In this document: piece by piece, positions 5,013-32,000 of the stretch | Position numbering within the stretch: position 1 is the stretch's first letter | Layout of the letters: each line of letters opens with the position of its first letter | DNA from: Pseudoalteromonas translucida KMM 520 | Lineage (GTDB): Bacteria; Pseudomonadota; Gammaproteobacteria; Enterobacterales; Alteromonadaceae | Length of the DNA: 32,000 nucleotides | Reading direction: 5' to 3' | Assembly (NCBI RefSeq): GCF_001465295.1 | Contig: NZ_CP011034.1 | Coordinates: 1,320,001 to 1,352,000, forward strand | The notes under the pieces: generated by a model | What the model was told of the DNA's origin: nothing | The model's database searches: none | What the model saw: the letters and a program-made list of their open reading frames with translations, nothing else | Program-made: the position numbers and the translations under genes

Positions 5013-5295
5013 GCAAACAACAGTGTATAGCTACACTGCAAGCATCGGCACTGCTGCTGGCGGTCTTATGTCATTGAATACTTTAGCCCTGTTGTTAGGA
5101 ATAGTCTTTACAGCCGCAACGTTTTTCATTAACTGGCGCAGTCAAAAGCACCGCCTTGAGATTGAGCTGCAAAAACGCAAAGAAGATGCTGAATTTCATC
5201 GTGCGCGCATGGCAAAACTGTCGGGCGATGATGTAAACCATTACAACAAGCGGGTAATGAAGGATGATCGCCGGTGTCAAAATGGGCCGATTTAA
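5005..5295 (+). CDS. Holin, two TMDs (possibly a pinholin)
   Basis: ATG 5005 overlaps the o-spanin stop (ATGGATAA). TMD1 ASIGTAAGGLMSL is Gly/Ala-rich and TMD2 is LALLLGIVFTAATFFINW. The C-terminal tail is highly charged. The track start at 4966 is less likely. Confidence 0.65.
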   Translation: MDKQTTVYSYTASIGTAAGGLMSLNTLALLLGIVFTAATFFINWRSQKHRLEIELQKRKEDAEFHRARMAKLSGDDVNHYNKRVMKDDRRCQNGPI

Positions 5296-5981
5296 ACGAG
5301 CTGTTTTTAAAGGAGCATGCTGAAAAGGGTATCGGGCCTCTTGAGTTTTGCGAAAGCAATGGCCTGAATTACGCCACCGCCAGGCGATATATAAAACTAC
5401 CGCAAGCGAATTTAAAGAATGCCCCTAAACAGCGCAAGACTAAAGACGGTAAAAAAAGACCTGGCGTTAAGCCTGGTACCAGAAACCGAAGCATAGTTAA
5501 GCATGGTGGTTACTCAAAGTATTTTGAAAACAATATTAATCAACTTGTCGAAGGTACAACACTTGAAGATGAGCTAGACCTTTGCCGCGCTCGCATTCAC
5601 ATGGTTATGGATGCTATTGAGGGTATTCAAAAGCTTTTAGATAACCCTGAAACAGACAATGATGCAAAAACACGACTTTATGAGTCGCTATTTAAAGCTG
5701 AAATGTCGCTTGATAGAAACGTTTGCAGAGCTGAGTCGATAACTAAAACATTATCGAGCATTAAAACAGACTCGCTTGCACGCGGTAAATTGATTGCTGA
5801 AACATCACGAATTACACAGCAGACCAAAGCACTGGTTCATTCTACTAAGCGCGGCAAGCACCAGGCAGAAATTTCAGAGCATGAAGCGATTAAAGCACGC
5901 AAAGAAGCAGGCGGTACCAGTAAGCTTGATGATTATATTGATAAACGTACTGGCGGTTTAGATACCGTGGTTAGTCAATAA
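5274..5981 (+). CDS. Terminase small subunit
   Basis: GTG start with GAAGGA upstream. The N-terminus is HTH-like (LEFCESNGLNYATARRYIK), followed by a basic linker and a helical oligomerisation-like region. It lies immediately upstream of, and overlaps, the large terminase. Confidence 0.75.
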   Translation: MSKWADLNELFLKEHAEKGIGPLEFCESNGLNYATARRYIKLPQANLKNAPKQRKTKDGKKRPGVKPGTRNRSIVKHGGYSKYFENNINQLVEGTTLEDELDLCRARIHMVMDAIEGIQKLLDNPETDNDAKTRLYESLFKAEMSLDRNVCRAESITKTLSSIKTDSLARGKLIAETSRITQQTKALVHSTKRGKHQAEISEHEAIKARKEAGGTSKLDDYIDKRTGGLDTVVSQ

Positions 5982-7714
5982 TGCAGCCTAAAACAGCTAA
6001 ATACCCCAAAAGCACGTGGCTTACGCAAGAAGAGCGCTTTAATTTAGATGAAGCTGAGTTGTTTGAACGCTGCGACCCATACCTAGATTGTTGGTGGTGG
6101 CGCATAAACAACTTATACATCATTGCTAACGAAAAGGGCCAAGAGGTTTTGTTTCGTTGCCGTATAGCGCAAACCGTATTGTTTATGACGATGTGGTTTT
6201 TAAACATTATCTTAAAAGCGCGGCAATTGGGCTTCAGTACAGCAATACAGGTTTTTATCCTGGACCATGCCATGTTTAACGATAACAGGCAGTGCGGGGT
6301 AATTGCTCAGGGTAAAGACGAAGCGGGCGCTATATTCTCGTCAAAGATACTTTACCCCTACGAACGGCTACCGAATTTCTTAAAGACGGGCAAGCGCTCA
6401 GTTAAAAGCAAGACGGGTACCGGGATTAAATTTAACAATGATTCGTGGATAAGGGTTGCAGTATCGTTTCGTTCGGGAACGCTGCAGGTTTTACACGTAT
6501 CAGAATACGGCAAGATATGCGCTAACTACCCATTGCGGGCAGATGAAGTGCAATCGGGCTCGTTTAACGCCGTACATGAGGACTCTTACATATTTGTAGA
6601 GTCAACAGCCGAAGGCGCAACCGGCAATTTCTTTGATATGTCAGTCGATGCGATGGAGCTATTAGCGTCCGGGATTGATTTATCACAGCAAGATTTTAAG
6701 TTTCACTTTTACCCTTGGTTTGATGATCCTAAGTATGTAGCCCCGGTACCACCAGGCGGCCTAAAACTTTCAAAGGAAAAAGTTAAATACTTTGCGTCAG
6801 TTGAAGCGGCAAACGGCGCAACGCTAACAGACGAGCAAATTAGCTGGTACATAGGCAAAGAGCGTAACCAAAAAGGCAAGATGAAGCAGGAATATCCATC
6901 TACACCGATGGAGGCTTTTTTAACGTCGGGCCGTAAAGTATTTGATAGCGATGATTTAATGCGTGCCGAAGGGCGATGCGTTAAGCCATTAATTGTTTAT
7001 GACATTGAGCCATACACCGGCAAGCTTAAAAAAATGAACGGTAAAGTTGATTTAAGCGTAAGAGGCGGCGACAAACTTGCTCAGTCAACGCTTGGGTACC
7101 TACTTATTTGGGAATTACCCGACGATAACGAAGATTATGCGATCGGCGGCGATGTTGCAGAAGGACTTGAACATGGCGATCGCAGCTCATTAGACGTTGT
7201 TGCCAGTTCAGACGGGCGACAGGTAGCGCATTGGTTTGGTCATATAGACCCTAAGCGGTTTGCACATATAAATAAGCATATCGGATTAATGTATAACAAG
7301 GCTTATATCGGCATTGAGCGAAACAATCACGGTCATGCAACACTTCAAGAGCTTGTTGATATTTACCCAACGAGCCGGATTTACACGGAAGAGCACATTG
7401 ATCGTGAAGATACGGACGAAGAAACCCGCAAAGTAGGCTGGAATACAACTGCGCAATCAAAGCCAATTTTAACGAGTGGCCTTGATGAGCTGCTTACTCA
7501 CGACAAAGACGGCATTGTTTGGCGCGGCACAGTTAATGAACTCAATACATTTGTTTACGATAAAAAAGGCCGCATGGGCGCACAGCCTGGCGGGTTTGAT
7601 GATCAGGTGATGAGCTATGCAATTGCGCAAGAAATGCGAGTAAGAATGCCTAAGCGGCTAATTAAAGACAATACACCAGCACCCCATAACCCTAACTCTT
7701 GGATGGCACGATAA
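5981..7714 (+). CDS. Terminase large subunit
   Basis: 577 aa. It has the ILKARQLGFST motif typical of the Terminase_6-type ATPase N-domain, and a C-terminal nuclease-like FDDQVMSYAIA. Its position is between TerS and the portal. Confidence 0.9.
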   Translation: MQPKTAKYPKSTWLTQEERFNLDEAELFERCDPYLDCWWWRINNLYIIANEKGQEVLFRCRIAQTVLFMTMWFLNIILKARQLGFSTAIQVFILDHAMFNDNRQCGVIAQGKDEAGAIFSSKILYPYERLPNFLKTGKRSVKSKTGTGIKFNNDSWIRVAVSFRSGTLQVLHVSEYGKICANYPLRADEVQSGSFNAVHEDSYIFVESTAEGATGNFFDMSVDAMELLASGIDLSQQDFKFHFYPWFDDPKYVAPVPPGGLKLSKEKVKYFASVEAANGATLTDEQISWYIGKERNQKGKMKQEYPSTPMEAFLTSGRKVFDSDDLMRAEGRCVKPLIVYDIEPYTGKLKKMNGKVDLSVRGGDKLAQSTLGYLLIWELPDDNEDYAIGGDVAEGLEHGDRSSLDVVASSDGRQVAHWFGHIDPKRFAHINKHIGLMYNKAYIGIERNNHGHATLQELVDIYPTSRIYTEEHIDREDTDEETRKVGWNTTAQSKPILTSGLDELLTHDKDGIVWRGTVNELNTFVYDKKGRMGAQPGGFDDQVMSYAIAQEMRVRMPKRLIKDNTPAPHNPNSWMAR

Positions 7715-7717
7715 CAG

Positions 7718-9814
7718 ATGGCTGATCACGTAAAATCAAATAAAGACGGCTTTACGCTAGATAAGCTGTTAACCCTGCTTGGCGATATTGACAGCCAACC
7801 CGATTGGCGCACGCCAGCAACTAAAGCGTGTGCGTACTATGACGGCGACCAATTAAGCGAAGCGGTAAGAAAAGTATTACGCGATCGCGGACAGCCCGAA
7901 ATAGTGCACAACATGATTGGGCCAACTATTGATGGTGTATTAGGCCTTGAAGCCCGATCACGTTCAGATCTAATGATTGTTGCCGATGATGAAAACGGTG
8001 ATGAATTAGCGAAAGCATTAAATGAAAAGTTTAAAGACGCCTGGCGTTTATCTCATGCTGATCGTGCTTGCTCGGATGCTTACGCTAGCCAGTTAAAAGC
8101 GGGCATTGGTTGGGTAGAAGTTACTAAAAATCCAATACCTTTTGCAGCAGCTTACCGCGTTAAGTTTATTCACCGTCGCGAAGTGTGGTGGGACTGGAAC
8201 GCACAAGAAGCCGATCGCAGTGATGCACGTTGGATGCTGCGTAAAAAATGGCTAGACCTGGACGAAGCCCTTACTACTTTTCCGGACCACAAAGAAATTT
8301 TAAAGAACTCAGTTAATTTGTGGGAAGATTTTTACAAGACGGTAGATAAAAAGCACGTAGAAGAGCATGGATTACACTCCGCTTGGCACGATAGCCAAAG
8401 CTGGACACGCGGACAAAGCGAATGGCTGGACCAAACTCGCAACCGTGTATTGCTGCAAGTTATTTACTACAAAGTATGGAAGCGCGCGCACATCATTAAA
8501 ATGAGCGATGGCCGTGTTATTGAATACGATAAAAATAACGATATTCACCAGGCTGCGGTACAAAGCGGCAAGGTTACTCTTGAATACGCTGCATTCCCTA
8601 ACGTGCGTGAAGCGTGGTTTGTTGGCCCGCATAGGATTATTGATAGACCAAGTGAAGCGCCTGGCGGCATGTATAACCTAATACCTTTCATTGGCTATCA
8701 AAAAGATGCAAGCGGTGAACCTTATGGACTGATCAGTCGCATGGTACCGGCACAAGATGGCATTAACGCACGCGTTATACGTCTTAACTACTTACTACAA
8801 GCACGACGAGTAATAGCCGATGATGATGCGACGCAGTTAAGTAACGACCGATTAAAAGAAGAAATCGAAAAGCCGGACGGGTACATACCACTTAACCCGG
8901 ACCGTAAAAGCAAGTTAAAGGCGTCAGATGCGTTAAGCATTCAAAACGATGTAGGCATTGCGGCGCAGCAGTTTAACTTAATGCAAAATGATATGAAGCT
9001 TATCCAGGACACAGCCGGCGTTTATAACTCGATGCTAGGCCAGGACAGCAACGCAGTAAGTGGTGTAGCCATTGCAAACTTGGTTGAGCAAGGCACAACA
9101 ACGCTTGCTGAGCTTAATGATAACTTTCACTTTTCACGTAACCGCGTAGGCGACTTGCTACTGGCTTTCATCATTGAAGAGTTAAAGCCGCAAAACAACG
9201 TGCAAGTAACCGCTAATCGCGACGATAAAGCGAAGCGTAAGCAGATTGTACTTAACCAGCCAAATGAAAGTGGCAAGCGTGATAACGATGTAGCGCGCTG
9301 GAAAGGTCACTTAGCGTTAGCACCGGTTAAAGCAACACCAACGTATCGACAGCAGCAAGCAACGCTACTAAGCAATGTAATGAGCCAGATACCGCCAGAA
9401 GCACAAGCAGCAACTATGCCTATGTTTGTTGAATTGATGGACCTACCAAACAAAGAAGAGTTTTTAGCAACACTACGCCAGGCGTTAAACATTCCTAAGC
9501 CGCAAGAGGATATGAACGAAGATGAACTTGCACAAGCTCAAGCCCAGGCTGAAAAAGCACAGGCGATGGAAGAGCTACAAATGCAAGAGATCCAAGGCAA
9601 TATGGAAAAGTTAGCCCTTGAGCGCGAACAGCTAAAAGTCAAAATACTTGAATTACAGAAGAAAACTGAAACAGAAGAAGTTAAAGACGACAAGTTGATA
9701 GCTGAAACTGAAAAGATTTTAAGTGAAGTGCGCCGTAGTAACGCTGAAATAGCAGCTATGAAGTCAAACGTACAAGCGAACATTCAACAACAACTAGACG
9801 CGATACAGGTGTAG
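7718..9814 (+). CDS. Portal protein with a C-terminal coiled-coil extension
   Basis: 698 aa, starting 3 nt after the TerL stop. The last ~100 aa are E/Q/A/K-rich and heptad-like. Called from position and size; no motif recalled. Confidence 0.8.
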   Translation: MADHVKSNKDGFTLDKLLTLLGDIDSQPDWRTPATKACAYYDGDQLSEAVRKVLRDRGQPEIVHNMIGPTIDGVLGLEARSRSDLMIVADDENGDELAKALNEKFKDAWRLSHADRACSDAYASQLKAGIGWVEVTKNPIPFAAAYRVKFIHRREVWWDWNAQEADRSDARWMLRKKWLDLDEALTTFPDHKEILKNSVNLWEDFYKTVDKKHVEEHGLHSAWHDSQSWTRGQSEWLDQTRNRVLLQVIYYKVWKRAHIIKMSDGRVIEYDKNNDIHQAAVQSGKVTLEYAAFPNVREAWFVGPHRIIDRPSEAPGGMYNLIPFIGYQKDASGEPYGLISRMVPAQDGINARVIRLNYLLQARRVIADDDATQLSNDRLKEEIEKPDGYIPLNPDRKSKLKASDALSIQNDVGIAAQQFNLMQNDMKLIQDTAGVYNSMLGQDSNAVSGVAIANLVEQGTTTLAELNDNFHFSRNRVGDLLLAFIIEELKPQNNVQVTANRDDKAKRKQIVLNQPNESGKRDNDVARWKGHLALAPVKATPTYRQQQATLLSNVMSQIPPEAQAATMPMFVELMDLPNKEEFLATLRQALNIPKPQEDMNEDELAQAQAQAEKAQAMEELQMQEIQGNMEKLALEREQLKVKILELQKKTETEEVKDDKLIAETEKILSEVRRSNAEIAAMKSNVQANIQQQLDAIQV

Positions 9815-11377: not shown

Positions 11378-12589
11378 ATGAGCACAATTACTAAAGCGCA
11401 AGCGGCTAAGGCGTTTGGCGCTGCCCTGTTTACCCACACTCGTCGTCAAAATACGTTTGTGAATATGTTAACCGGCGCAGCTCCACAAGCAGCAAAAGCA
11501 GACACGGCACATAACAAAAAGCAAACTGAAAAGGGCGCACCTATTGTTATGATCAACGACTTACAAAGCCAAGCAGGCGACGCGGTAGAAATGGACTTGT
11601 TCCATAATCTAGGCGGTTTGCCAACGATGGGCGATAAAAAACTAGAAGGCCGAGGCGAGAGCTTAAGCAAGACAGTATTTGAATTGCGCATTGACCAAGG
11701 CCGTAAGATGGTTGATAGCGGTGGCAAAATGTCACAAAAACGTACTAAGCATAACTTGCTTACAACAGCTAAAACGCTGTTAGGCAACTACTACAACGAC
11801 CTTAAAGACGAAGTGGCTATGTACCACTTGGCGGGCGCGCGCGGTTCGTTTGCACCGGACGATATTATTATCCCACTTGAAAGCCATGAAGAGTTTAAAG
11901 AAATCATGGTTAACGAAGTATTGGCACCTACATATGACCGCCATATCTTTGGTGGTGATGCGACTAGCCTTGAAAGCATTGATGCTGCGGATATTATGAC
12001 GCTAGAAAAGCTAGATGATTTAGCGCTTATTCTTGAAGAGCAATCAAATCCGATGAAGAACATCACGTTTGAAGCCGATCAGATGGCGAATGAGTCACCG
12101 TTCTTCTTACTATTTGTTACTCCGCGTCAATGGCGTGACCTATGGGCTTCTGCGACTGATAAGAAATTGCAAGAGCTACAATCACGCGCTATCAAACGTG
12201 GTACCGGCTTTAATCACCCGGTATTCAAAGGTGATGTGATCATGTGGCGCAACATTCTTGTTCGTCAATATCGTAAGCCAGTACGCTTCTATGCAGGCGA
12301 TACGGTTACAGTGTCTAACAATGACAGACTTGCAACGACCAAACAGGTTACTGCAGGCGTAGACATTGACCGCGCTATCTTATTAGGTGGCCAGGCACTT
12401 GCTAACGCATACGGTAAGTCTGATTCAGGCTCGCACTTCTCTATGACTACTGAGAAAACCGACCATGGCAACGCCAATGAAACAGCAATCGTATGGATGA
12501 ATGGCTGTAAGAAAGTACGCTTCTCTGATAAGACAGGCCGCGTAAACGATTACGGCACTATGGTCCTTGATACCGCCGTTACGCTTTAA
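11378..12589 (+). CDS. Major capsid protein
   Basis: 403 aa with an AGGAAA RBS, located directly after the scaffold and followed by a hairpin plus T-run. No specific family motif recalled. Confidence 0.8.
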   Translation: MSTITKAQAAKAFGAALFTHTRRQNTFVNMLTGAAPQAAKADTAHNKKQTEKGAPIVMINDLQSQAGDAVEMDLFHNLGGLPTMGDKKLEGRGESLSKTVFELRIDQGRKMVDSGGKMSQKRTKHNLLTTAKTLLGNYYNDLKDEVAMYHLAGARGSFAPDDIIIPLESHEEFKEIMVNEVLAPTYDRHIFGGDATSLESIDAADIMTLEKLDDLALILEEQSNPMKNITFEADQMANESPFFLLFVTPRQWRDLWASATDKKLQELQSRAIKRGTGFNHPVFKGDVIMWRNILVRQYRKPVRFYAGDTVTVSNNDRLATTKQVTAGVDIDRAILLGGQALANAYGKSDSGSHFSMTTEKTDHGNANETAIVWMNGCKKVRFSDKTGRVNDYGTMVLDTAVTL

Positions 12590-18702: not shown

Positions 18703-20313
18703 ATGCCTGCCATATCCGTTAAAACATTTGCCGGTGAACGGCCTAAAGTTGATCCGCGCTTGCTCCCTAACGAATCAGCCGCTAAAGCCTATGGCTGCCA
18801 CTTTGATAATGGCAACTTATCGCCACTCAAAAGCCCGTTACTGACTGGTATATCCGTTATTTCTAACGCGAAAACTATTTACAAGCACTTAAATGAGTAT
18901 TGGTTCTCATGGGATAAAGCGGTTAACGCGGTAGCAAGTCCGGTGGCTAACGATCCATGGCAACGGGTTTACTTTACCGGTGACGGGTACCCGAAGGTAA
19001 CGAACAACACTATTTTTAGTGGCGCTATCATGCCAGCTAATGATTACCGCCTGGGTATTCAGTCGCCAGAAGTGCCGATAATCGCCATTGTTAATGATGC
19101 GGCTACCGAGGAAGTTGATCCCAACGATGATGAAACGCGTTATTACACGCACACGTTTGTTACTGAGCAAGGCGAAGAAGGCCCGCCAGGTGAAGCGTCG
19201 CAGCGTATTGATATTAGATACCCCAATGAAGAAGGTACGCATGTAAAGCTATCGTTTTCACCGCCTAACGTGAACGCGTCGAACATCACGCACCGACGAA
19301 TATACCGAACGGCAACCGGCGGCGGCATAGCTGATTACTTGTTTGTTGCTGAAATTCCTATTTCACAAAACCTATTTGTTGACGATATATCTACCGACGA
19401 GCTGGGATCATCGCTTGATACTTACGACTATGAAATGCCAAACGAAAACATGATCGGCTTAACGTCGATGGCTAACGGTATCTTAGCTGGCTTTTTTGAT
19501 AGTACCGTTTGCTTTAGTGAGTCCTACTTACCATATGCCTGGCCTACCGGGTACCAACTAACAACCGAGCATAAAATAGTAACGTGTGCAGCACTTGGCA
19601 ATACGCTGGCGGTACTCACAGAGGGCTACCCGTATTTATTTAGTGGCATTAGCCCTGACTCAATGGCCGGGCAAAAGCTTGAATCTAACCAGTCATGCAC
19701 CAGCGCGCGATCGGCGGTTATTGTTAATGGCTCACTTATTTACGCAAGCCCCGATGGTTTAATAGGCCTTAACGGTGGTGGGCTATCCATGCTTACCGGG
19801 CAGATAATTACTCGCGAGCAGTGGCAGGAATATGAGCCAAGCACGATTGAGGCGTACCACCAGGAAGGGCGCTACCTGGCGTTTTACGGTGCCAATTTAG
19901 ATAAGGCATTTATATTTGACCCTACAGATGGCGATTTTAGGCATTTTACAGCGACAGCCAATTGTGGCTTTAACAGCCTGGTTGATGATGCGCTTTACAT
20001 TTGCCAAGGTAAAAACCTTAGCAAGTGGGAGGCTGGCCCCGCAGTTATGAGCTACGAGTGGAAGTCTAAGGCGTTTATAGCTAACGACCTAAGCTTTGCA
20101 TGTGCAATGGTAAAAGGCGTAGACACGGAGCTTGCAGGGCTGCGCATTTACGCCGACGAAGTGGAGGTATTACATTTAGCGCCAGGGCAAATACCTAAAT
20201 CAGCATTTAGACTGCCAAACACGCGCGGTAATTCATGGTCCTTTGAAGTTTACGGCAAGGGTACAATTCATAGCGTGTCGATTGCGACAACGATGCAAGA
20301 GGTAGCGGCTTAA
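18703..20313 (+). CDS. Tail structural protein (536 aa), unknown family
   Basis: A long beta-rich ORF whose stop is directly followed by the start of the giant fibre gene. Called from position. Confidence 0.65.
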   Translation: MPAISVKTFAGERPKVDPRLLPNESAAKAYGCHFDNGNLSPLKSPLLTGISVISNAKTIYKHLNEYWFSWDKAVNAVASPVANDPWQRVYFTGDGYPKVTNNTIFSGAIMPANDYRLGIQSPEVPIIAIVNDAATEEVDPNDDETRYYTHTFVTEQGEEGPPGEASQRIDIRYPNEEGTHVKLSFSPPNVNASNITHRRIYRTATGGGIADYLFVAEIPISQNLFVDDISTDELGSSLDTYDYEMPNENMIGLTSMANGILAGFFDSTVCFSESYLPYAWPTGYQLTTEHKIVTCAALGNTLAVLTEGYPYLFSGISPDSMAGQKLESNQSCTSARSAVIVNGSLIYASPDGLIGLNGGGLSMLTGQIITREQWQEYEPSTIEAYHQEGRYLAFYGANLDKAFIFDPTDGDFRHFTATANCGFNSLVDDALYICQGKNLSKWEAGPAVMSYEWKSKAFIANDLSFACAMVKGVDTELAGLRIYADEVEVLHLAPGQIPKSAFRLPNTRGNSWSFEVYGKGTIHSVSIATTMQEVAA

Positions 20314-23300
20314 ATGGCTAAGTTAACAAAAGGTGGCTTTTCGGGTATTGCTCGAAAGGCAAAGCAAAGCCAATCAGAAGGCGCGATCACAGAGAACATT
20401 GAAATATTAACCGGGCAACGTGGTAGTGGTGAAAACCGCGCGCTATTAGTTAAGGACCTGGTTAACTTAGATGATATGAAACGCAATGCGCTAATCAATA
20501 GCGCAAAGGGTGGCAACAATAGCGGTGGCTTACCCATTGTTGTAGGTGGTATTCAGCGCCCGCACGCACCAGTAAACCTTAGCGCTACCGGCGGCTTTAC
20601 GTTTATAGCACTAACCTGGGACCGCCCAACTTATCGAGGTCACGCTTACGCTGAAATTTGGCGCAGCGAAACAGACGCGTACAACACAGCTACGCTTATA
20701 GCTACCGAAGTGGCGGACGTATTTAGCGACTCAGTAAACATGGGTGCTGAATTTTACTATTGGGTTCGCTTTGTAAACGTTGCTGATATGAAAGGCCCTA
20801 CGCAGGGCGCAAAAGGTATCTATGCTAAAACTGTTGAGTCTGCGGCGTCTATACTTGATGAAATAGGCGGGAAAATTGAAGGCTCGCACCTGGGGGATTT
20901 CCTAACGTCTGAAATAGGGAAGATACCGGAAATAGATTTTACTTTAAACGAAGTGATCACGGTTGAGATACCGAAATTAAAAGTAGACGTTGATAGCTTT
21001 GGAGCCGACGCCGACCAACTGCGCATTGACGCTGACTCATTACGCGTTGATGTTGATAGTAACCTTGCAGCAATACCCCCGCTTAAGCTTGATGTTGATA
21101 AAATAAAGCTGACTGAAATACCAAAATTAAAGACTGACATTGATCAGCTAAATGTAGATGTTCCTGCATTAAGGGCGGACGTTGATAAAAACCTGGTAGA
21201 TATTCCAGCGTTAAGAATAGACGTTGATAAAAACCTGCTAGAAATACCGGACATTAAAAGCGATGTTAGTGCGATAAATGTTGAGATACCAGCTATTCGC
21301 CAGGACTTAATAGACTTAACTGGCGAATCAGCAGAAATCAAAGCTATTGCAGATACAGCAAAACAAAGAGTTGAATCGGTAGAAGCAAGCAGCGAAACTT
21401 TAGCTAGGCAGCTAATTGAAAGCGCGTCGGTAAATGATACCAATTGGCAAAGCAATACGACAAAGCTAATAGCGTTTGAATCGTCTTTAGAAAATGTGAA
21501 TGCCCGTATTGAGTCTGATTTTTTAACTAAAACAGAAGCAAACGAAGCGATAGCCGCCGCGTCACAAACCATACGCACTGAAATAGAAGAGTCGGGCTTA
21601 GCGCTATCTGGTGATATAGAGAGTACCTATTACACTAAAACAACTACAGATCAGGCAATTGCTCAAGCGACCCAGGATATAAAGGCGCAAATTGAAGATC
21701 CATTGGGTAGCAGTGTTGGCGCTCAACTTAAATCGCAGCATTACACTAAAGTCGATGCGGACAGCGCGATTAGCTTTTCAGCAGAGCAGCTAAAATCAGC
21801 AATAGAGAACCCGGCGGGTACCAGCCTGGGCGCATTAATAAACAACGACTATTACACAAGCATTGCTACAGATAGCGCCATTGCGGCTTATGGCTTGCAA
21901 CTAAAAAGCGATATTGAAAACCCGGAAGGCGATAGTATAGGGGCCTCACTTAAAACCGATTACTACACTAAAACCGATACGGATAGCGCAATAAGCCAGG
22001 CGACTACGCTATTAAGCTCAGAAATTACCGGCGCAACCGATCAGATAGATACAATAAATGCCACACTTACAAGCGATTATTATACAAGTGCGGAAGCGGA
22101 TCAGGCGGTATCAGCAGCGACGCAGCTTTTAAAATCTGAAATAGAAAACCCGTTAGGCTCAAGTGTTGGCGCAACTTTATTTAATAACTACTCGACTACC
22201 ACAACTACAAATGAGGCTATAAGCCAGGCGACGACTGAGCTTAAATCAACCTTGGATGGTGACATTGGCGCGATAAGTGCGGACCTGGGCAGCAATTACT
22301 ACACCATAGCCAGCACAGACAGCGCAATAAGCCAGGCGACACAGTTATTAAAATCAGCAATTGAGGACCCGCTAGGCACTAGCATTGGTGCGACTTTGGC
22401 TACTGAATATTCTACTACGGTAGATATAGACCAAGCTATTAGTGAAGCAACTACGCAGCTGAACTCGAACATTGATAGTGCCGAAGCAGATATTTACCAA
22501 AACGTATATACGAAAGTTGAGGCAGATACCGCCATATCAGGAAGTGTAACTGCGCTCAGATCTGAATTAAGCAAGGTTATCGAGGATGGCGACACCGCTT
22601 TATTCCAGGACTTTAGTGCGGACCTGCAAACTAACTACTACACAAAAACACAAGCGGACGGCGCGATAAGCTCGGCTACAACGGCTTTAAAATCAGCGCT
22701 TGATAGTGATATAGGTAATGTAACTACTGAGCTACAAGATAACTACCTTACAAAAGTAGGCACCAACTCAGCCATTAGCCAGGCTACGCAGCTTTTAAAA
22801 TCTGAGATTGAAGATCCAGAGGGCAACAGCCTGGGCGCTACGCTTTTTACCGACTACTCAACTAAGACAGAAGTTAACCTGGCAATTAGTGAAGCGACCA
22901 CACAGCTAAACACTAACCTAGATAACCTGCAGTCTGATGTATATAACAACTTTTACACCAAAACGGATGCGGATAGCAGCATAGCCGGTAGCGTTACCGC
23001 GCTTAGATCTGAGCTTATGCAGGTTATTGATGATGGCAATAGCGACGCCGTTCAATCCATCGAAGCCGACCTGCAAACTAACTACTACACCAATGTAGCA
23101 ACAGATAGCGCTATCAGTGAGGCGACAACCTTACTAAAGACAACTATTGAAGATCCGCAAGGGGATAGCCTGGGTGCTGAACTGTTTAATCGGTACTACA
23201 CCAAAACAGACACCGACGGCGCATTGGCTGAACTTAATACGCAGCTAAGGGCAGAGTACCAACCACTAAGCGAAGCGGTTATTGAAAACGCCCTTGCCAA

Positions 23301-26300
23301 TGATGAGGCAAACAACAAGCAGCTAAAATTTGCAGCAGAGATAATATCGCAACAGAAAACCTTTGTTGATGATCAGGGCGCGCTTGCTGAGTCTATTTTT
23401 GCGCTACGTTCTGAATTTGGCGACAGCCAGGCAGAGCTATATACCTTGAAAGAAACGTATGCTGGCAACGTGCTAGCAACTGCGAAGGAGTTTAACAAAC
23501 TAGAGTCAAGCATAGGCGACGTATCAGCAACGCTATTAAATAGCTATGACACATCGGCCACGACAACAGAAGCGATAGCTAATGCGGTTTTGGCCCTTAA
23601 ATCTGAAATAGAAGATCCTGCAGGGGATAGTGTAGCCGCCAACCTACAGGTGAACTACTACACCAAAACTGATACTGATAACGCACTAAGCGAGCTAACC
23701 ACGCAGTTAAACGCAAGCGTCACCGGTTTATCAGCTGAAATTTATGAAAACATTTATACTAAGGTCGATGCGGACAGCGCTATAAGCTCGGCTGTTACTG
23801 CGCTTCGCTCAGACGTTGATAGTGATATAGGCGAACTTAGTGCAGGAATAGAGCAAAACTACTACACCAAAACGGATGCGGACAGCGCAATAGCACAGGC
23901 TAACCAACTGCTAAAATCGGCTATTGAAGATCCGGAAGGTAGTAGCCTGGGCGCAACCTTGTTTAATGCTTACTACACAAGCACTCAAGCAGATAGCGCG
24001 ATAAGTGAGGCCACAACGGCCCTTAAATCTGTTTTAGATAGTGACATAGGTAGCGTTACTGCGGACTTGCAAAACAATCACTCTACTACAGCGCAAACAA
24101 ATCTCGCCATTTCAGAAGCGACCCAGCAGTTAAAAAGTGCTATTGAAGATCCCGCCGGCGACAGTTTAGCGGCGGATATTTACACTAACTTTTCAACCAA
24201 GGCTGATACAACTAGCGCCATTAGTGAAGCGACAACAGCGCTAAAATCTACACTCGATGGCGATATAGGTGCGGTTTCGTCCGACTTGCAGACTAACTAT
24301 TTAACTAGCACGCAAACAGATGAAGCCATTAGCCAAGCGAATACCTTATTAAAATCGACAATAGACGATGATATAAGCTCAGTAGCCGCAGACCTACAAA
24401 CTAACTACCTAACAAGCACGCAATCTAACCAGGCGATAAGCGAAGCTACTACAGCGCTTAAATCTGTTTTAGACGGCGATATAGGAAGTGTTGCGGCGGA
24501 CTTGCAGAACAACCACTCTACGACAGCAGAAACAAATTTAGCTATATCCCAGGCAACCCAGCAACTTAAAAGCGCAATCGAAGATCCTGCCGGAGATAGC
24601 TTAGCGGCAGATATTTACACCAATTTCTCAACCAAGACAGATACAACCAGCGCAATAAGCCAAGCAACTACGGCACTAAAATCTACACTTGATGGCGAAA
24701 TTGGCACAGTAGCATCGGATTTGCAGACTAACTACTACACGAAAACTAACACTGACAGCGCCATTAGCCAGGCGACTACGGCGTTAAAATCTACGCTGGA
24801 CGGCGATATAGGTGCGGTAGCCTCAGACTTACAGACTAATTATTTAACCAGCACGCAAACGGATCAGGCAATAAGCCAGGCAACCACAACATTAAAATCC
24901 ACACTGGATGGTGATATTGGCGAGGTGGCCGCAGATCTGCAAAACAACTATCGCACAGAGACAGATACCGATACGGCAATCAGCCAGGCAACAACTGTTT
25001 TAAAAAGTGAGATTGAAGATCCGGAAGGCAACAGCCTGGGCGCTACGTTATTTAATGACTTTCAAACTAAGGTGGATGCGGACAAATCAACGGCAACGAC
25101 TAACCAGCAACTTAGGGCAGAGTTTGAGCCAAGCGCACAAGCGGTAATTGAAAACGCATTAGCGAATGACCTGGGGCAAGGCAGAAGAGCGCTAGCCGAG
25201 GCTGATATAATCAACAAGCAAACTGTTTTTGCTAATGAGCAAGAAGCACTAGCCGAATCCATTACCCTGCTAAATACGTCGATTGACGAAAGTAACTCAA
25301 ACCTTTACCAGCTACAAAAGACTTTTGCCAGCAAGACGCAGGCAACCGCACAGGATTTATTAAAGCTCGATAGCAGTGTTGGCGATGTTAAGGCTGATTT
25401 AGTAAATAACTACTTCACTAGCGCAGACGTTAACGAGGCAATAGCCAGTGCAGATATGGCTTTGCGTGCTGCCATAAAAGGCGGCGACGATGAAGCTTTA
25501 GAGACTGTAACGGCAGAGCTACAAACCAATTATTATACAAAGGCATCGGCAGATAGCGCCATTGCAGAAGCGACGACGCAACTTAAAAGCGCCATTGAGG
25601 ACCCTAACGGATCAAGTGTTGGTGCTGATTTATACGTTAACTATTCAACAACTACTGAAACAGGCTTAGCTATAAGCTCAGCTGTTACCGGGCTAAAGTC
25701 TACAATTGATACTGATATTGGCAACTTAAGCGCTGGATTGTCGCAGAATTACTACACAAAAACCGATACAGATAGTGCAATAAGCCAGGCTACTACAGCT
25801 TTAAAGTCAACACTTGATGGCGATATTGGCGACTTGAATGCGGTTTTGCAGACGGACTATTACACTAAGGTAGCCACGGATAGCGCGATTAGCTCAGCAG
25901 TAACCACCTTAAAGTCTACGCTGGATAGTGATATAGGAAGTTTGGGCGCAGTATTGCAGGCAAACTACTACACTAAAACAGCGGCGGATAGTGCGCTTAG
26001 CTCAGCAGTAACTAATCTAGGCTCTAAAATTGACACTGATATAGGCGTTGTTAATTCAGGGCTGCAAACAAATTACTACACTAAAACAGCAACAGATAGC
26101 GCCATTAGCTCAGCAGTAACTACGCTTGAATCAAGTGTGGGTGATGATATTGGCGACTTAAGCGCGGTACTACAGGCCAACTACTACACGAAAACAAACA
26201 CTGACGGCGCAATTAGTAGCGCCAGCCAGGTGCTAAAAGCCGCTATTGAGGACAAAAACGGTAACAGTGTGGGTGCCAGCCTGCAAACACTTGGCGAAAC

Positions 26301-27462
26301 CGTGGCAACAAATGACGGTAAATTCTCTTCTTTGTGGGGCGTAAAGACCAGCGTTAACGGCTTGCAGTCGAGTATTGGCCTAGTGAACGACGGCGTAGAG
26401 CCTATCTTTGCAGTTAAGGGCGCTAAGTTTGCGATTATAACGGATCAAGATCCTACTAACTTAACACCGGTATTTGCAGTTTCAAGCGGTAAAACGGTAA
26501 TTAACACGGCGATAATTGACCAGGCATTTATAAAAAGCCTGGTTACAGATGATTTATTATCTAATCGTATACTGGTTGGCTCCCGCTTTACGTCGCCGTC
26601 TATCAACTACAATCCCGCCAATGGCGCAAGGAGCAATAACTTTTCAATTGACCCTGGCGGCAACATGCTTGCTAAGAGCGCGACGCTTGAGTCGGTAACT
26701 ATTAAAGACAGTTACGGCAATGTTGTTATGTCGTCTACCGGTGCCATACCTTCATCAAAAGTAACTGGCCTGGGGGCTTTAGCCGCTAAAAGCTCACTGT
26801 CTTATAATGAGGTAACAGGCACGCCCGCGCTTGGCTCATTGGCTTACTTAAACTCGCTCGCTTACAACAGCATAACCGGCAAGCCGTCACTAGGTCCTTT
26901 TGCTGGACTTAGTAAAATATTGAGTTCAAACGTTACAACCTATATAGCCAACGGCGCTATTGGTAGTGCGCAAATAGATACGGCGTATATCAACTCGTTG
27001 TTTGGTCAAAACGCGAGCTTTTATGGCACCGTGTATGCGAACAATATTGAGGGCGATGTAACTGATATAAAGTCAAAATCAACATCGTTTGTAACAACCT
27101 CATCTTCGGCGGAGCTAACAGTGGTAACATTTACAGTGTCGGCACTTCCTTTTACAAGAAACGTGATGATTTGCGGGGTGGAAACGACAGGCTCAGGAGC
27201 TAGCGGATCGGCTCCCAACGTTGAAGTGCTTCTATATGTTTCCGGCTACTCAGGGGCGCGAGACAAATATCTTTGTTCTCATTCAAGTACAGGATCTAGC
27301 GTGGCAATATCAATGCCACTAGTTGCAACCATACCCGCCAATAGCACCAGGACAGTAACAGTTAAGATTAGGAAGGTGGGCGGCAGCAGTTCAAGCACTG
27401 CGACTGCGCGAGCGCAGAATGTGGTGTGCCAAGTATTCAAGTCGGGTTCTACAATTTCATAA
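20314..27462 (+). CDS. Giant host-specificity/tail fibre protein (2382 aa): FN3 domain, tandem-repeat shaft, lambda-J-like C-terminal region
   Basis: FN3-like APVNLSATGGFTFIALTWDRP...AEIWRS...EFYYWVRFVNV. There are about 39 repeats of ~36 aa. The C-terminus (LWGVKTSVNGLQSSIGLVNDG...FAII...TPVFAV..GKTVINTAIIDQAFIKSL...GTVYANNIEGDV) parallels lambda J (WGMKLEQT...IAFID...[21 protein letters not shown]...GTLRAEKIVGDI), as recalled from memory. Confidence 0.85.
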   Translation: MAKLTKGGFSGIARKAKQSQSEGAITENIEILTGQRGSGENRALLVKDLVNLDDMKRNALINSAKGGNNSGGLPIVVGGIQRPHAPVNLSATGGFTFIALTWDRPTYRGHAYAEIWRSETDAYNTATLIATEVADVFSDSVNMGAEFYYWVRFVNVADMKGPTQGAKGIYAKTVESAASILDEIGGKIEGSHLGDFLTSEIGKIPEIDFTLNEVITVEIPKLKVDVDSFGADADQLRIDADSLRVDVDSNLAAIPPLKLDVDKIKLTEIPKLKTDIDQLNVDVPALRADVDKNLVDIPALRIDVDKNLLEIPDIKSDVSAINVEIPAIRQDLIDLTGESAEIKAIADTAKQRVESVEASSETLARQLIESASVNDTNWQSNTTKLIAFESSLENVNARIESDFLTKTEANEAIAAASQTIRTEIEESGLALSGDIESTYYTKTTTDQAIAQATQDIKAQIEDPLGSSVGAQLKSQHYTKVDADSAISFSAEQLKSAIENPAGTSLGALINNDYYTSIATDSAIAAYGLQLKSDIENPEGDSIGASLKTDYYTKTDTDSAISQATTLLSSEITGATDQIDTINATLTSDYYTSAEADQAVSAATQLLKSEIENPLGSSVGATLFNNYSTTTTTNEAISQATTELKSTLDGDIGAISADLGSNYYTIASTDSAISQATQLLKSAIEDPLGTSIGATLATEYSTTVDIDQAISEATTQLNSNIDSAEADIYQNVYTKVEADTAISGSVTALRSELSKVIEDGDTALFQDFSADLQTNYYTKTQADGAISSATTALKSALDSDIGNVTTELQDNYLTKVGTNSAISQATQLLKSEIEDPEGNSLGATLFTDYSTKTEVNLAISEATTQLNTNLDNLQSDVYNNFYTKTDADSSIAGSVTALRSELMQVIDDGNSDAVQSIEADLQTNYYTNVATDSAISEATTLLKTTIEDPQGDSLGAELFNRYYTKTDTDGALAELNTQLRAEYQPLSEAVIENALANDEANNKQLKFAAEIISQQKTFVDDQGALAESIFALRSEFGDSQAELYTLKETYAGNVLATAKEFNKLESSIGDVSATLLNSYDTSATTTEAIANAVLALKSEIEDPAGDSVAANLQVNYYTKTDTDNALSELTTQLNASVTGLSAEIYENIYTKVDADSAISSAVTALRSDVDSDIGELSAGIEQNYYTKTDADSAIAQANQLLKSAIEDPEGSSLGATLFNAYYTSTQADSAISEATTALKSVLDSDIGSVTADLQNNHSTTAQTNLAISEATQQLKSAIEDPAGDSLAADIYTNFSTKADTTSAISEATTALKSTLDGDIGAVSSDLQTNYLTSTQTDEAISQANTLLKSTIDDDISSVAADLQTNYLTSTQSNQAISEATTALKSVLDGDIGSVAADLQNNHSTTAETNLAISQATQQLKSAIEDPAGDSLAADIYTNFSTKTDTTSAISQATTALKSTLDGEIGTVASDLQTNYYTKTNTDSAISQATTALKSTLDGDIGAVASDLQTNYLTSTQTDQAISQATTTLKSTLDGDIGEVAADLQNNYRTETDTDTAISQATTVLKSEIEDPEGNSLGATLFNDFQTKVDADKSTATTNQQLRAEFEPSAQAVIENALANDLGQGRRALAEADIINKQTVFANEQEALAESITLLNTSIDESNSNLYQLQKTFASKTQATAQDLLKLDSSVGDVKADLVNNYFTSADVNEAIASADMALRAAIKGGDDEALETVTAELQTNYYTKASADSAIAEATTQLKSAIEDPNGSSVGADLYVNYSTTTETGLAISSAVTGLKSTIDTDIGNLSAGLSQNYYTKTDTDSAISQATTALKSTLDGDIGDLNAVLQTDYYTKVATDSAISSAVTTLKSTLDSDIGSLGAVLQANYYTKTAADSALSSAVTNLGSKIDTDIGVVNSGLQTNYYTKTATDSAISSAVTTLESSVGDDIGDLSAVLQANYYTKTNTDGAISSASQVLKAAIEDKNGNSVGASLQTLGETVATNDGKFSSLWGVKTSVNGLQSSIGLVNDGVEPIFAVKGAKFAIITDQDPTNLTPVFAVSSGKTVINTAIIDQAFIKSLVTDDLLSNRILVGSRFTSPSINYNPANGARSNNFSIDPGGNMLAKSATLESVTIKDSYGNVVMSSTGAIPSSKVTGLGALAAKSSLSYNEVTGTPALGSLAYLNSLAYNSITGKPSLGPFAGLSKILSSNVTTYIANGAIGSAQIDTAYINSLFGQNASFYGTVYANNIEGDVTDIKSKSTSFVTTSSSAELTVVTFTVSALPFTRNVMICGVETTGSGASGSAPNVEVLLYVSGYSGARDKYLCSHSSTGSSVAISMPLVATIPANSTRTVTVKIRKVGGSSSSTATARAQNVVCQVFKSGSTIS
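20920..21315 (+). repeat. Short-period coding repeats (I/V)P-x-(L/I)-(K/R)-x-D-(V/I)-D
   Basis: Eight copies seen in the translation: IPEIDF, IPKLKVDVD, IPPLKLDVD, IPKLKTDID, VPALRADVD, IPALRIDVD, IPDIKSDVS, IPAIRQDLI. Related QLRIDAD and SLRVDVD segments also occur. Confidence 0.7.
21517..26290 (+). repeat. Coding tandem-repeat array, about 39 units of 32-44 aa (mode 36-37)
   Basis: Manual segmentation of the translation. The unit consensus is YYTKTDTDSAISQATTALKS followed by either IEDPxGxSxGAxLxxN or LDGDIGxxxxDLQTN. Two ~100-aa non-repeat modules break the array into three blocks. Confidence 0.85.
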
Positions 27463-29272: not shown

Positions 29273-30529
29273 ATGGCAGGTGCATTTGTAGACGGCGCAT
29301 TAAAAGGCTTTGAAATGATGGAGCGCCACCAGGCGCGCAAGGACGACAAGGCTCGACTTTCTATCATGGATGAGCGTAATGAAGAGCGCTACCGTGAGAG
29401 CATTGAAAGACAAAACCGAATGGATGAAGAGAGCCGTAAAAACCGCGAAAGCGATGTTACGTGGCGAGAGAGTCAAGCGGAAAGTACCAATAACTACCGC
29501 AACGATGCGCTAACGGCGAATAAGGAGCAGACTAAGTGGCAGCAAAACTACAAAAACCAGCAAGCGCAATGGCAAAAAGATCAGCAGGCAATACCCGTCG
29601 CATGGCAATCATTCAGAGAAACGGGGCAGGTACCAGAAGAGCTTAGCGATGTGCTAGAGCGAAACAAAGGTATGGACCCAAGAACCTATATGAACCCACA
29701 GTACCGCGCAGAAGTTAAAGGGCTGGGTGAAAAGCTTGATAACGTAATCAAGAGCGGCAACATGGCAGAAGCCAACTCGCCAGAAACGTTAAATCTATTT
29801 AACAATGTTTTTAAAGACAAGATAAGTCAATCGGTAGGACAGTTCGATGAAAAGGTTAACTCTAAAATTGCCAGTGTTGATTTTGCCGGGTTCGTTCCGG
29901 CCGAGCGCGAGGACGGTAGCGTAGCCCTGGCGCTCAAGGTGACGTATGCAAATGGATCACAAGAAATAAAACCTATGACCAAAGGGCGCTCGTCTGACGG
30001 CGACGATCCGGTAATGACCTACACGCCGAAAGAGCTTGTAAACACTATAAAAACGCGTGCCATGATGGCCGATATGATGGAACGCCCTGAGTATTGGGAC
30101 AAAATGGGCGCAGAGGTCGCCGCAAACTTTGGCCGTGGCACGAAAGCAAGCGCCGGCAAAGGTGGAGATAATGGGTATCAAAAGCAACTCAACTCGATAC
30201 AAGATGAAATGACTAAAGCGCTCGCTAAAATCGAAGGCGGATCAGACCTGGACTACCTTGATGATGGTGGTAGAGAGGAAGCTAAAAACAGAGTTAAGAA
30301 GCTTTATCAAGAGCGTATAGAGCAGCTACAGCAGTCTTACGGTACATCATCTAGCAGCAAGCCTACAAATTCTAATCAGACAAATGAATCTGTTAAATAC
30401 ATTAGTAAAATAGATGGCGTTGATGCCAAGGGCGTTATCTCCAAATTCATGGAAGCGAACAAAAATTTATCAGAACAGCAAGCTACACAAATAGCCATTC
30501 AGCAAGGGTATTTATCAAATGACCAATAA
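29273..30529 (+). CDS. Putative internal virion protein, highly charged and Q/N/R/E-rich
   Basis: AAGGGG RBS, 418 aa. The N-terminal ~120 aa are charged low-complexity sequence. It overlaps the next ORF by 11 nt. Confidence 0.6.
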   Translation: MAGAFVDGALKGFEMMERHQARKDDKARLSIMDERNEERYRESIERQNRMDEESRKNRESDVTWRESQAESTNNYRNDALTANKEQTKWQQNYKNQQAQWQKDQQAIPVAWQSFRETGQVPEELSDVLERNKGMDPRTYMNPQYRAEVKGLGEKLDNVIKSGNMAEANSPETLNLFNNVFKDKISQSVGQFDEKVNSKIASVDFAGFVPAEREDGSVALALKVTYANGSQEIKPMTKGRSSDGDDPVMTYTPKELVNTIKTRAMMADMMERPEYWDKMGAEVAANFGRGTKASAGKGGDNGYQKQLNSIQDEMTKALAKIEGGSDLDYLDDGGREEAKNRVKKLYQERIEQLQQSYGTSSSSKPTNSNQTNESVKYISKIDGVDAKGVISKFMEANKNLSEQQATQIAIQQGYLSNDQ

Positions 30530-32000
30530 AATAGTAGATCCATTTACAAATAAAGAAATTGAGTTTGTTGATCCCTTTGCTGAGCCAGAAACTAAAAGTG
30601 GGATGGCGGCAGCATTTGGAGCGGGAGTTGATAAAGTTGAAGAGCTAGGTTACCGCGCAGTAAAGGGCTTTACTGACACAGGCGAAAACCCAGATGATCA
30701 CGAAGAGGGCTCGTTTTCTCAGTCGGTGGCAAAGGCAATTGGCAAAGGTGGCTCAGTTTCTAAATGGGCGCAAGAAGGCATCGATCGCAATGTTAAAGAG
30801 CAGGAGGCATACGAGCCAACCGTTAAATCATATAAAGATATTGATGGGTTTGGTGACGCAGCCAGCTATACCGGCGAATTGCTGGCTGGCTCGCTACCCT
30901 ACATGGCAGGCGCTGCTACTGGAATAGGCGCGCTTGGTATGGCTGGCGGTTTATCGCATGAGGCTTATGAAAAGCAGCCAGAAGGCGAAAAAGACGCGGC
31001 AAGAGCTGTTACATCGGGTGCCGCTCAAATGCTACTTGAGCGTTTAGGTATCAAGGTAAGCATGGGCCAACTTGGCAAAGATATTTTAAAAGATGGTGTG
31101 GTAGAAACCGCTAAGCGCATGGGCAAGGGAGAGCTTGTAGATGCTGTACGCGATCCAAGTTTTGCTAAGCGCATATTCAAAGGCGCTGTAGGCGAAGGCT
31201 TAACCGAGACAGGTCAAGAGGCACTAGCGCAATGGGGCGCAGGTAAAAGCATTGATGAATTTGAAGGGCTAGACGAAGCATTTGTAGGTGGTTTTGCGGT
31301 CGGTGGCGTAATGCGTACTGGCTCAGAGTCAGCGCAAAAGGTAATGGGATACCAGAAAAAAACAGCCGAAGCGGTAAAGCAAGGTGTAGATCAACTTGTT
31401 GAGGCAGGCGCAAGCCACGGTGAGGCAATTGATACTGTACGTAAACAGCAATATGACGCCGCTAAAAAGCAGGGGCTAAGTGAAGCAGAGGCGTCCGCAG
31501 TTGTTGCGCGCACCATGAAAGAAAAATTTGGCATTGACGATCCTTTGTTTGCAGCAGCAGCGGAGCCAGTGGCGGTGGAGTCGGTAGAAGCGGGCATGGA
31601 GCCAACCATACCCGAAGATACGCAAACACCTATTTTTCAAAATGATGAAGTGGATTTCGATGCGCCAACAGCAGCTAGACAGGCGGGATTTGATCAAACA
31701 AATAAAGCGGCCGGCCAATATGGGGATATGCTTACAAGCCCTGCGCAACAGTCATTAAGCGCTTTAGATGCAGGCAACAATGCGCCCACAGTAGACGAGC
31801 GAGTAAAGGCGGCGGCCTTTGATAAATCACCAACACCAGAAGATCGTTTTAGCCCAATAAAGTACCAGCATGAAGGCGATTTATTGGGGCCAGAGGCGCA
31901 AGACGCGCAAAGCATAGACAATGCCCCTATTGATGGGCAAACAGTGCCAGAACAAGGTAAGTTACCAACGGCAGAGCAAACACAAAGCCGGCAAATGCGT
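30519..32000 (+). CDS. Large putative internal virion/ejection protein, 5' part (at least 494 aa, continues past the window)
   Basis: My own translation from ATG 30519 (MTNKIVDPFTNKEIEFVDPFAEPETKSGMAAAFGAG...) is open through nt 32000, which is 494 codons. It is missing from the track because there is no stop in the window. AAGGG lies 10 nt upstream. It contains a Gly/Ala-rich hydrophobic segment (LLAGSLPYMAGAATGIGALGMAGGL). Confidence 0.75.
   Translation, partial: MTNKIVDPFTNKEIEFVDPFAEPETKSGMAAAFGAGVDKVEELGYRAVKGFTDTGENPDDHEEGSFSQSVAKAIGKGGSVSKWAQEGIDRNVKEQEAYEPTVKSYKDIDGFGDAASYTGELLAGSLPYMAGAATGIGALGMAGGLSHEAYEKQPEGEKDAARAVTSGAAQMLLERLGIKVSMGQLGKDILKDGVVETAKRMGKGELVDAVRDPSFAKRIFKGAVGEGLTETGQEALAQWGAGKSIDEFEGLDEAFVGGFAVGGVMRTGSESAQKVMGYQKKTAEAVKQGVDQLVEAGASHGEAIDTVRKQQYDAAKKQGLSEAEASAVVARTMKEKFGIDDPLFAAAAEPVAVESVEAGMEPTIPEDTQTPIFQNDEVDFDAPTAARQAGFDQTNKAAGQYGDMLTSPAQQSLSALDAGNNAPTVDERVKAAAFDKSPTPEDRFSPIKYQHEGDLLGPEAQDAQSIDNAPIDGQTVPEQGKLPTAEQTQSRQMR

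Follow-up and report, generated by a model that had tools for sequence, protein, structure and literature searches.

The shaft of a giant phage tail-tip fibre gene in Pseudoalteromonas translucida KMM 520 contains two adjacent copies of a block of repeat units, in which the protein is kept and the silent sites are scrambled. The gene lies in a stretch of 32,000 nucleotides (nt) of contig NZ_CP011034.1 (assembly GCF_001465295.1, positions 1,320,001 to 1,352,000 of the forward strand), referred to here as the window, and all positions are given within it. The two copies probably originated from an old tandem duplication within the repetitive shaft. Purifying selection on the encoded units and nearly saturated silent sites are firmly supported.

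The blocks, A (23971-24405) and B (24406-24840), are 435 nt each, in frame with the open reading frame (ORF) at 20314-27462, and align without gaps. They share 83.4% of their amino acids (aa) and 75.2% of their nucleotides, with identities of 85%, 94% and 46% at the three codon positions. Of the 145 codons, 83 differ, 59 silently and 24 with a change of amino acid. At 23998-24876, Tandem Repeats Finder independently detected 2.0 copies of a 435-nt period, without indels and with 76% matches. The first three unit pairs of the blocks (a/a', b/b' and c/c') occupy the top three ranks of protein identity among the 178 same-length unit pairs in the gene, with a/a' (0.83) tied with two other pairs. 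Because these top pairs are collinear, the similarity of the blocks is not due to chance. The counts given in a preliminary description of this DNA were reproduced. The first three units differ at 13 of 109 residues (6 + 2 + 5), and the 37-codon unit, for which about 20 differing codons with 2 replacements had been reported, differs at 21 codons with 2 amino acid changes.

The same description had drawn the arrangement as a four-unit tandem duplication of 435 nt. The duplication itself stands, being in frame and gap-free, but the register of its fourth unit had to be revised. Unit d of copy A shares only 69% protein identity with the unit at 24733-24840 (c''). Its better partner is the following unit, d', with 78% protein and 74% DNA identity, 92% identity over the first 12 residues, and an offset of 181 aa. 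At the protein level, c'' has 83% identity to c' and 81% identity to c. With 24733-24840 taken as an extra c-type unit, the array reads a b c d / a' b' c' c'' d'.

The Nei-Gojobori method gave a proportion of synonymous differences (pS) of 0.72, a proportion of nonsynonymous differences (pN) of 0.106 and a dN/dS ratio (omega) of about 0.05 for A versus B; for a-b-c only, pS was 0.73 and pN was 0.072. With a maximum-likelihood codon model, dS was about 2.2, dN was 0.075-0.12 and omega was 0.03-0.05. The likelihood profile of dS had a lower bound of about 1.15 and no upper bound. Omega = 1 was rejected (twice the log-likelihood difference, 99.7). The earlier proposal of strong purifying selection with high synonymous divergence is upheld by this codon-aware comparison: omega is far from 1, fewer than half of the third positions are identical, and nucleotide identity is lower than protein identity. 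Amino acid changes were removed approximately 20 to 30 times more efficiently than silent ones, and silent sites drifted by single-base mutation until the third positions were nearly saturated.

Ordinary genes show the same relation. The closest relative with DNA available, IMGVR_UViG_2871515535_000003 (L001), has approximately 75-80% DNA identity to the window. Compared with L001, the gene directly upstream of the fibre gene (18703-20313) has 87% protein and 80% DNA identity, a pS of 0.66 and a pN of 0.070, and other window genes with 82-88% protein identity to their closest relatives have pS values of 0.47-0.69. For the flanking fibre repeats (aa 924-1219), the comparison with L001 gave a dN of 0.108 and a completely saturated dS. 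Repeats in different phages, which are unable to delete each other, equally show kept protein and scrambled silent sites. Among the unit pairs of 16 family fibre genes, 18 reached a protein identity of 80% or more, and third-position identity exceeded 0.6 in only three of them; in most, it was 0.28-0.57, compared with a baseline of 0.35-0.40. These results indicate that scrambled silent sites with a kept protein are the norm across the family. An old duplication, one of the two readings left by the preliminary description, is consistent with the controls from orthologous genes, flanking repeats and family arrays alike.

The block a-b-c-d may have been copied by out-of-register recombination between neighbouring 36/37-aa units, and one more c-type unit would have been added to produce the order a b c d a' b' c' c'' d'. 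The constraint on the protein may be attributed to a need for each unit to keep its fibre-building residues (T3, A10, I11, A14, L18 and G27). The longest exact match between A and B is 17 nt, and no exact repeat longer than 23 nt occurs in the whole 7.1-kb gene, which leaves homologous deletion little to act on. Efficient RecA-type recombination needs matches of at least approximately 20-30 bp. With matches near or below this length, the array would now be stable. We read the short matches as a by-product of age and survivorship and not as selected recoding. The additional 145-181 residues would lengthen the fibre shaft; the relatives also vary in length in a modular manner, and their range of 1342 to about 2600 aa probably reflects how many units they have.

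Several observations weigh against this explanation. Scans of IMG/VR, metagenome contigs and GTDB genome contigs with the repeat block and the N-terminal domain found no relative closer than L001, which leaves the duplication undated. At silent sites, A is nearer to the single copy of L001 than to B (pS of 0.55 versus 0.73), and for unit b alone, pS is 0.20 to L001 versus 0.79 to B. This closeness indicates that either the duplication predates the coalescence with L001 and a copy was lost in the relatives, or unit b was recently exchanged, or B was imported. The pS between A and B (0.73 ± 0.05) is marginally above the 0.63-0.66 of ordinary genes at equal pN, and B has 12 private third-position changes compared with 6 in A; both are slight effects, which could weakly hint at faster silent change. 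No confident structural model of the unit was obtained. A single-sequence monomer AlphaFold prediction of aa 1183-1582 had a predicted local distance difference test (pLDDT) score of 47.7, and when the PDB was searched by sequence, neither the protein nor a 28-unit profile had a meaningful match (GlmU and RecA, at E values of at least 0.03, are chance matches).

The relatives bear on where copy B came from. L001 has a pre-a-b-c-e arrangement with the a-b-c block once, and b-c is single in L010, L002/P0001, P0004 and P0005. The block is single in these five relatives and duplicated in the window only, indicating that the second copy is specific to the window lineage among those sampled. Units a, b and c of copy A match L001 at 30/36, 35/37 and 28/36 residues. 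Unit b has 94% DNA identity to that of L001 beside 70% for the adjoining unit c, indicating that the fibre gene is a mosaic of segments moved between lineages. Patches with 86-94% DNA identity to L001 occur at 24079-24189 and approximately 25411-25857, in a gene with otherwise 70-80% identity. By their sequence, they point to a probable recent exchange of single-unit-size segments between phage lineages.

It is unlikely, though with some evidence in its favour, that B was imported from the fibre gene of a diverged relative, co-infecting or resident, through out-of-register recombination, in which case the copies would have been divergent at silent sites from their formation. The mosaic structure of the gene (unit b, unit c and aa 1700-1850, the last with 86-94% DNA identity to L001), the closeness of A to L001 at silent sites, the single block in all five relatives that have it, and the longer private branch of B (17 unique sites versus 6 in A) are all consistent with import. 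However, A and B group together in comparisons with L001 and L010. Informative amino acid sites in b and c support this grouping 4:0:0, and first and second codon positions support it 6:2:0 (third positions, 7:8:3), so import would require a donor from a sister lineage that is very close and unsampled. The IMG/VR, metagenome and genome scans revealed no donor. Derived residues common to A and B make duplication in place the preferred reading over import; such a duplication would date back at least to the divergence of the window from L001. Both lead to ordinary divergence under purifying selection.

It is very unlikely that the silent sites were actively driven apart, through selection for identity-breaking synonymous changes in a gene in which identical repeats get deleted (a natural form of codon scrambling). 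The absence of longer exact matches between the copies and within the gene, the slightly raised pS and the near-baseline third-position identity of most protein-similar unit pairs in the 16 fibre genes would fit such selection. Codon choice does not. At residues conserved between A and B, the same codon was used in 62 of 121 cases, compared with 43.6 expected from the codon usage of the gene (z = 3.6), indicating that identical codons are commoner than random. Over all unit pairs and identity classes, the same-codon ratio was 1.04-1.26 and never below 1. When codon columns were shuffled, the longest exact match had a mean of 17.8 ± 4.2 nt (probability of a shuffled value equal to or below the observed one, 0.60), indicating that the differences between A and B are not spaced to break identity tracts.

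The serine codons point in the same direction. All 15 conserved serines of A and B have stayed within their codon family (TCN or AGY), in an array that uses 109 AGY and 74 TCN codons, whereas a random redraw would switch approximately 48% of conserved serines. The switch rate climbs with the divergence of the units (0/27, then 0.09, then 0.20), and the serine codon families are largely column-specific within the unit. Such a pattern is the mark left by drift in single mutational steps from one ancestral DNA sequence. In 57 of the 59 codons with silent differences, just one base differs.

Recoding is also opposed by the relatives, in which orthologues in different phages are equally or more saturated and young repeats persist with 93-99% identical DNA. 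In the L001 fibre, units 871 and 907 (aa 871-942, gene nt 2578-2807) form a very young one-unit tandem with 99% DNA identity over 108 nt. In the L006 fibre, copies with a 222-nt period at aa 680-975 have up to 93% DNA identity and are accompanied by a graded series of older copies. These repeats indicate that duplication is ongoing in this fibre family and that its repeats span a continuous range of ages. Selection against DNA identity, the second reading of the preliminary description, is not borne out by the codon, spacing, serine, orthologue and young-repeat results. The A/B pattern is ordinary for this gene family, with no sign of deliberate recoding.

A related idea is second-order selection for silent-site divergence in long tail-tip fibre arrays, in which duplicates would survive only if their recombination substrates were erased quickly. 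This is equally improbable; if it were true, silent change would have sped up once the block had been duplicated, and the slightly raised pS between A and B and the surplus of third-position changes private to B would be its trace.

Convergence or chance likeness among low-complexity units that follow one consensus, without any duplication, could draw on the consensus common to all units (unrelated pairs are already 50-60% identical) and on a codon model that cannot tell the A/B silent sites from full saturation, but it is effectively refuted by the collinearity of the top three of 178 unit pairs at one offset and by the identical serine codon families at 15 of 15 sites, as well as by unit-specific features kept in order (HSTTA..., ...LAADIYTN, FSTK...) and the 435-nt period detected at the DNA level by Tandem Repeats Finder.

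Old tandem duplication thus remains the preferred explanation, and its setting within the fibre gene is given in Table 1.

Table 1. Coordinates of the fibre gene, its parts, the duplicated units and the upstream gene in the window
Feature	Position	Strand	Basis or remarks
"Internal virion protein" homologue, upstream, abuts the fibre start codon	18703-20313	+	phrog_511, E = 5.8e-182
Tail-tip fibre gene, holds the duplication	20314-27462	+	Single ORF, 2382 aa; PHROG 37064, PF09327
Conserved N-terminal domain, aa 1-195	20314-20898	+	tblastn 34-44%; 76% identical to L001
14-aa repeat region (about eight units) and predicted helical linker, aa 196-402	20899-21519	+	Tandem Repeats Finder, motif listing
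Shaft array, about 40 units of 36/37 aa, aa 403-1993	21520-26292	+	Unit segmentation
Copy A	23971-24405	+	Units a 23971-24078, b 24079-24189, c 24190-24297, d 24298-24405
Copy B as first drawn	24406-24840	+	Units a' 24406-24513, b' 24514-24624, c' 24625-24732, c'' 24733-24840
Unit d', better partner of d, true end of the second copy	24841-24948	+	Offset-181-aa profile
PF09327 domain, aa ~1990-2076	26281-26541	+	41.8 bits
C-terminal region	26542-27459	+	phrog_37728 match at aa 2153-2382; conserved in P0001-P0004

Judging from its sequence, the N-terminal domain probably attaches the fibre to the tail, and the C-terminal region is presumed to be a putative distal or receptor-binding part. The 14-aa repeats follow the motif (I/V)P-x-(L/I)-(K/R)-x-D-(V/I)-D, and Tandem Repeats Finder detected them as an array with a period of 42 nt and 79% matches at 21154-21257. 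This family (aa 196-340, 20899-21330; for example, VDIPALRADVDKNL) is unrelated to the shaft units. The shaft units have the consensus YYTKTxTDSAISxATTxLKSxIExxIGxSxxAxLxxN. In the unit alignment, T3 and A10 were invariant, and I11, A14, L18 and G27 were at least 90% conserved. Unit b was considered as an exceptionally conserved docking site present in double number through the duplication, and this was rejected: its mean best identity in 16 homologues was 0.64-0.65, compared with 0.73-0.75 for units 1546 and 1740.

The shaft array is broken up by 76-aa and 117-aa modules. The 117-aa module occurs twice, at 23194-23544 and 25060-25410 (aa 961-1077 and 1583-1699), with 46% protein and 54% DNA identity between the copies, and three times in L001. 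It is probably a long helical segment ("...QLRAE(Y/F)(Q/E)P...AVIENALAND..."). The 76-aa modules, at aa 699, 848 and 1115, are another, older super-repeat.

In the low-confidence AlphaFold model, helices were placed on the DSAISxATxxLKSxIE segments of the units. Among the phage-fibre beta-layer motifs listed by Hartmann et al. 2016 (PMC4786415) are VYTKAESKQE, LATKVETAQK and YVSKTAT, which all precede a helical segment. They belong to trimeric alpha/beta coiled coils with beta-layers, of which the tail fibre hyaluronidase of Streptococcus prophage SF370.1 (2C3F) and the P22 gp26 needle are examples. The start of the unit, YYTKTDxDSAI, is similar to these motifs, a likeness in sequence only. 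In addition, the units have a Pro/Gly-rich segment (EDPEGxSLGA or DGDIG) that the described motif does not include. A beta-layer or coiled-coil fold for the 36/37-aa unit may be taken as a lead only.

The fibre ORF matched PHROG 37064, "tail fiber protein" (E = 7e-286), in 15 stretches, the best of which was aa 6-494, and also matched phrog_496 (E = 1.5e-46). Its relatives are annotated as "phage tail tip fiber protein". PF09327 (Phage_Tail_Tip, formerly DUF1983) scored 41.8 bits against a gathering cut-off of 22 (E = 1.2e-10) in a scan of the C-terminal 433 aa alone and was absent from the whole-protein Pfam listing. Pfam scans of the whole protein and of the repeat block otherwise gave just spurious sub-threshold matches (PurS, apolipoprotein and DUF1664), and an NCBIfam search gave no match. 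With tblastn, the N terminus was 34-44% identical to proteins of Aeromonas phage phiARM81mr, Vibrio phage douglas 12A4 and short-tailed Stx2 phages, annotated as "tail tip fiber protein" or "tail fiber protein"; one Vibrio phage gene is annotated as "fibronectin type III". The nearest proteins among the 5.8 billion searched had 48-55% identity and came from Pseudoalteromonas and Rheinheimera, and further relatives were found on Paraglaciecola and Colwellia contigs. No match was found by megablast against GenBank phages with the fibre gene or window positions 1-20313 as queries. These results place the gene in the PF09327 tail-tip fibre family, as a new member of unusual length that carries a lineage-specific expansion of four to five units.

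The window is a phage structural module, with a terminase at 5981, a portal at 7718 and a major head protein at 11378. The fibre gene is located directly after the phrog_511 gene and before a giant virion protein gene (30495 onwards), and this position is conserved, with the same gene order in phiARM81mr and in L001-L010. The very large ORF at 30495 runs past the window end at 32000. In L001, L003 and L010, giant ORFs (>1600 aa) lie downstream of the fibre gene, and the first ~500 aa of the ORF at 30495 are 69-82% identical to them. The position of the latter suggests a possible counterpart in ORF80, a 2793-aa tail-formation protein of Stx2 phage Sp5. The 976-aa protein encoded at 14756-17686 matches, in its first ~150 residues, N-terminal parts of the PHROG tail fibre families phrog_2712, 1980 and 1591. 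By this likeness it is probably a second, side fibre or tailspike, which may parallel the separate fibre ORF67 of Sp5. Two minus-strand ORFs at 20820-21578 (106 and 144 aa) overlap the 5' part of the fibre gene in antisense orientation; they probably arise spuriously from the repeat composition. In phiARM81mr (L031, KT898134.1), genes annotated as "retron-type RNA-directed DNA polymerase" and "23S rRNA-intervening sequence protein" are located at 5185-6818, within the structural module and about 2 kb upstream of the tail-tip fibre gene. This pair, which has no counterpart in the window, could be a diversity-generating retroelement.

The duplication is a clean example of a modular phage fibre growing by unit duplication and carries little weight alone. 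It also exemplifies how purifying selection and time lead to a repetitive protein encoded by nonrepetitive DNA. High protein identity with scrambled silent sites between repeats is, alone, no indication of selection against DNA identity. The comparison of same-codon use with random, the spacing shuffle, the serine codon-family switching and the orthologue controls are reusable on other repeat arrays. The 36/37-aa unit is an uncharacterised fibre building block with neither a Pfam model nor a solved relative.

In Stx2 phage Sp5, the DUF1983 protein ORF71 (ECs1233) is needed for tail formation, which is abolished by its deletion (PMC5155283). Among the tail-tip fibre proteins, such a requirement is known for Sp5 ORF71 alone. 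The PF09327 tail-tip fibres (phiARM81mr p63, the douglas 12A4 tail fibre, Sp5 ORF71 and the Pseudoalteromonas/Rheinheimera prophage proteins P0001-P0016) share with the window fibre a homologous N-terminal domain, a PF09327 domain near the C terminus and the gene order of virion structural gene, fibre, small genes and giant virion protein. The marine relatives also have the same array of 36/37-aa units. With 2382 aa, the window fibre is among the longest of the family, in which full-length relatives have 1342-2565 aa; the longest open frame seen, in L024, has 2684 aa, with its start not determined. Among those seen, the a-b-c block occurs twice only in the window fibre, which, as noted, reaches at best 48-55% whole-protein identity in the protein database. 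A literature search on this pattern in tail fibres, with all terms required together, found no prior description.

Synthetic codon scrambling of repetitive genes is an engineering practice to suppress recombination. The end state is similar, a repetitive protein encoded by DNA with little repetition. The window fibre differs in that it has no same-codon use at or below random, no serine family switches and no evenly spread differences.

Polyubiquitin, reportedly described in these terms by Nei, Rogozin and Piontkivska in 2000, is said to be the classic case of birth-and-death evolution of tandem repeats under purifying selection. As in birth-and-death evolution, the repeats of the window fibre are similar in protein with strong silent divergence and an omega far below 1 (0.03-0.05), and they show neither homogenisation nor the long identical tracts of gene conversion (longest match, 17 nt versus 17.8 nt in shuffled columns). 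Copy number varies by lineage, and duplicates of different ages coexist, being young in L001 and L006 and graded in L006. Unlike polyubiquitin, the window units are not identical in protein, so the constraint is on a structural consensus and not on one exact sequence, and the setting is a mosaic phage gene that exchanges segments between lineages.

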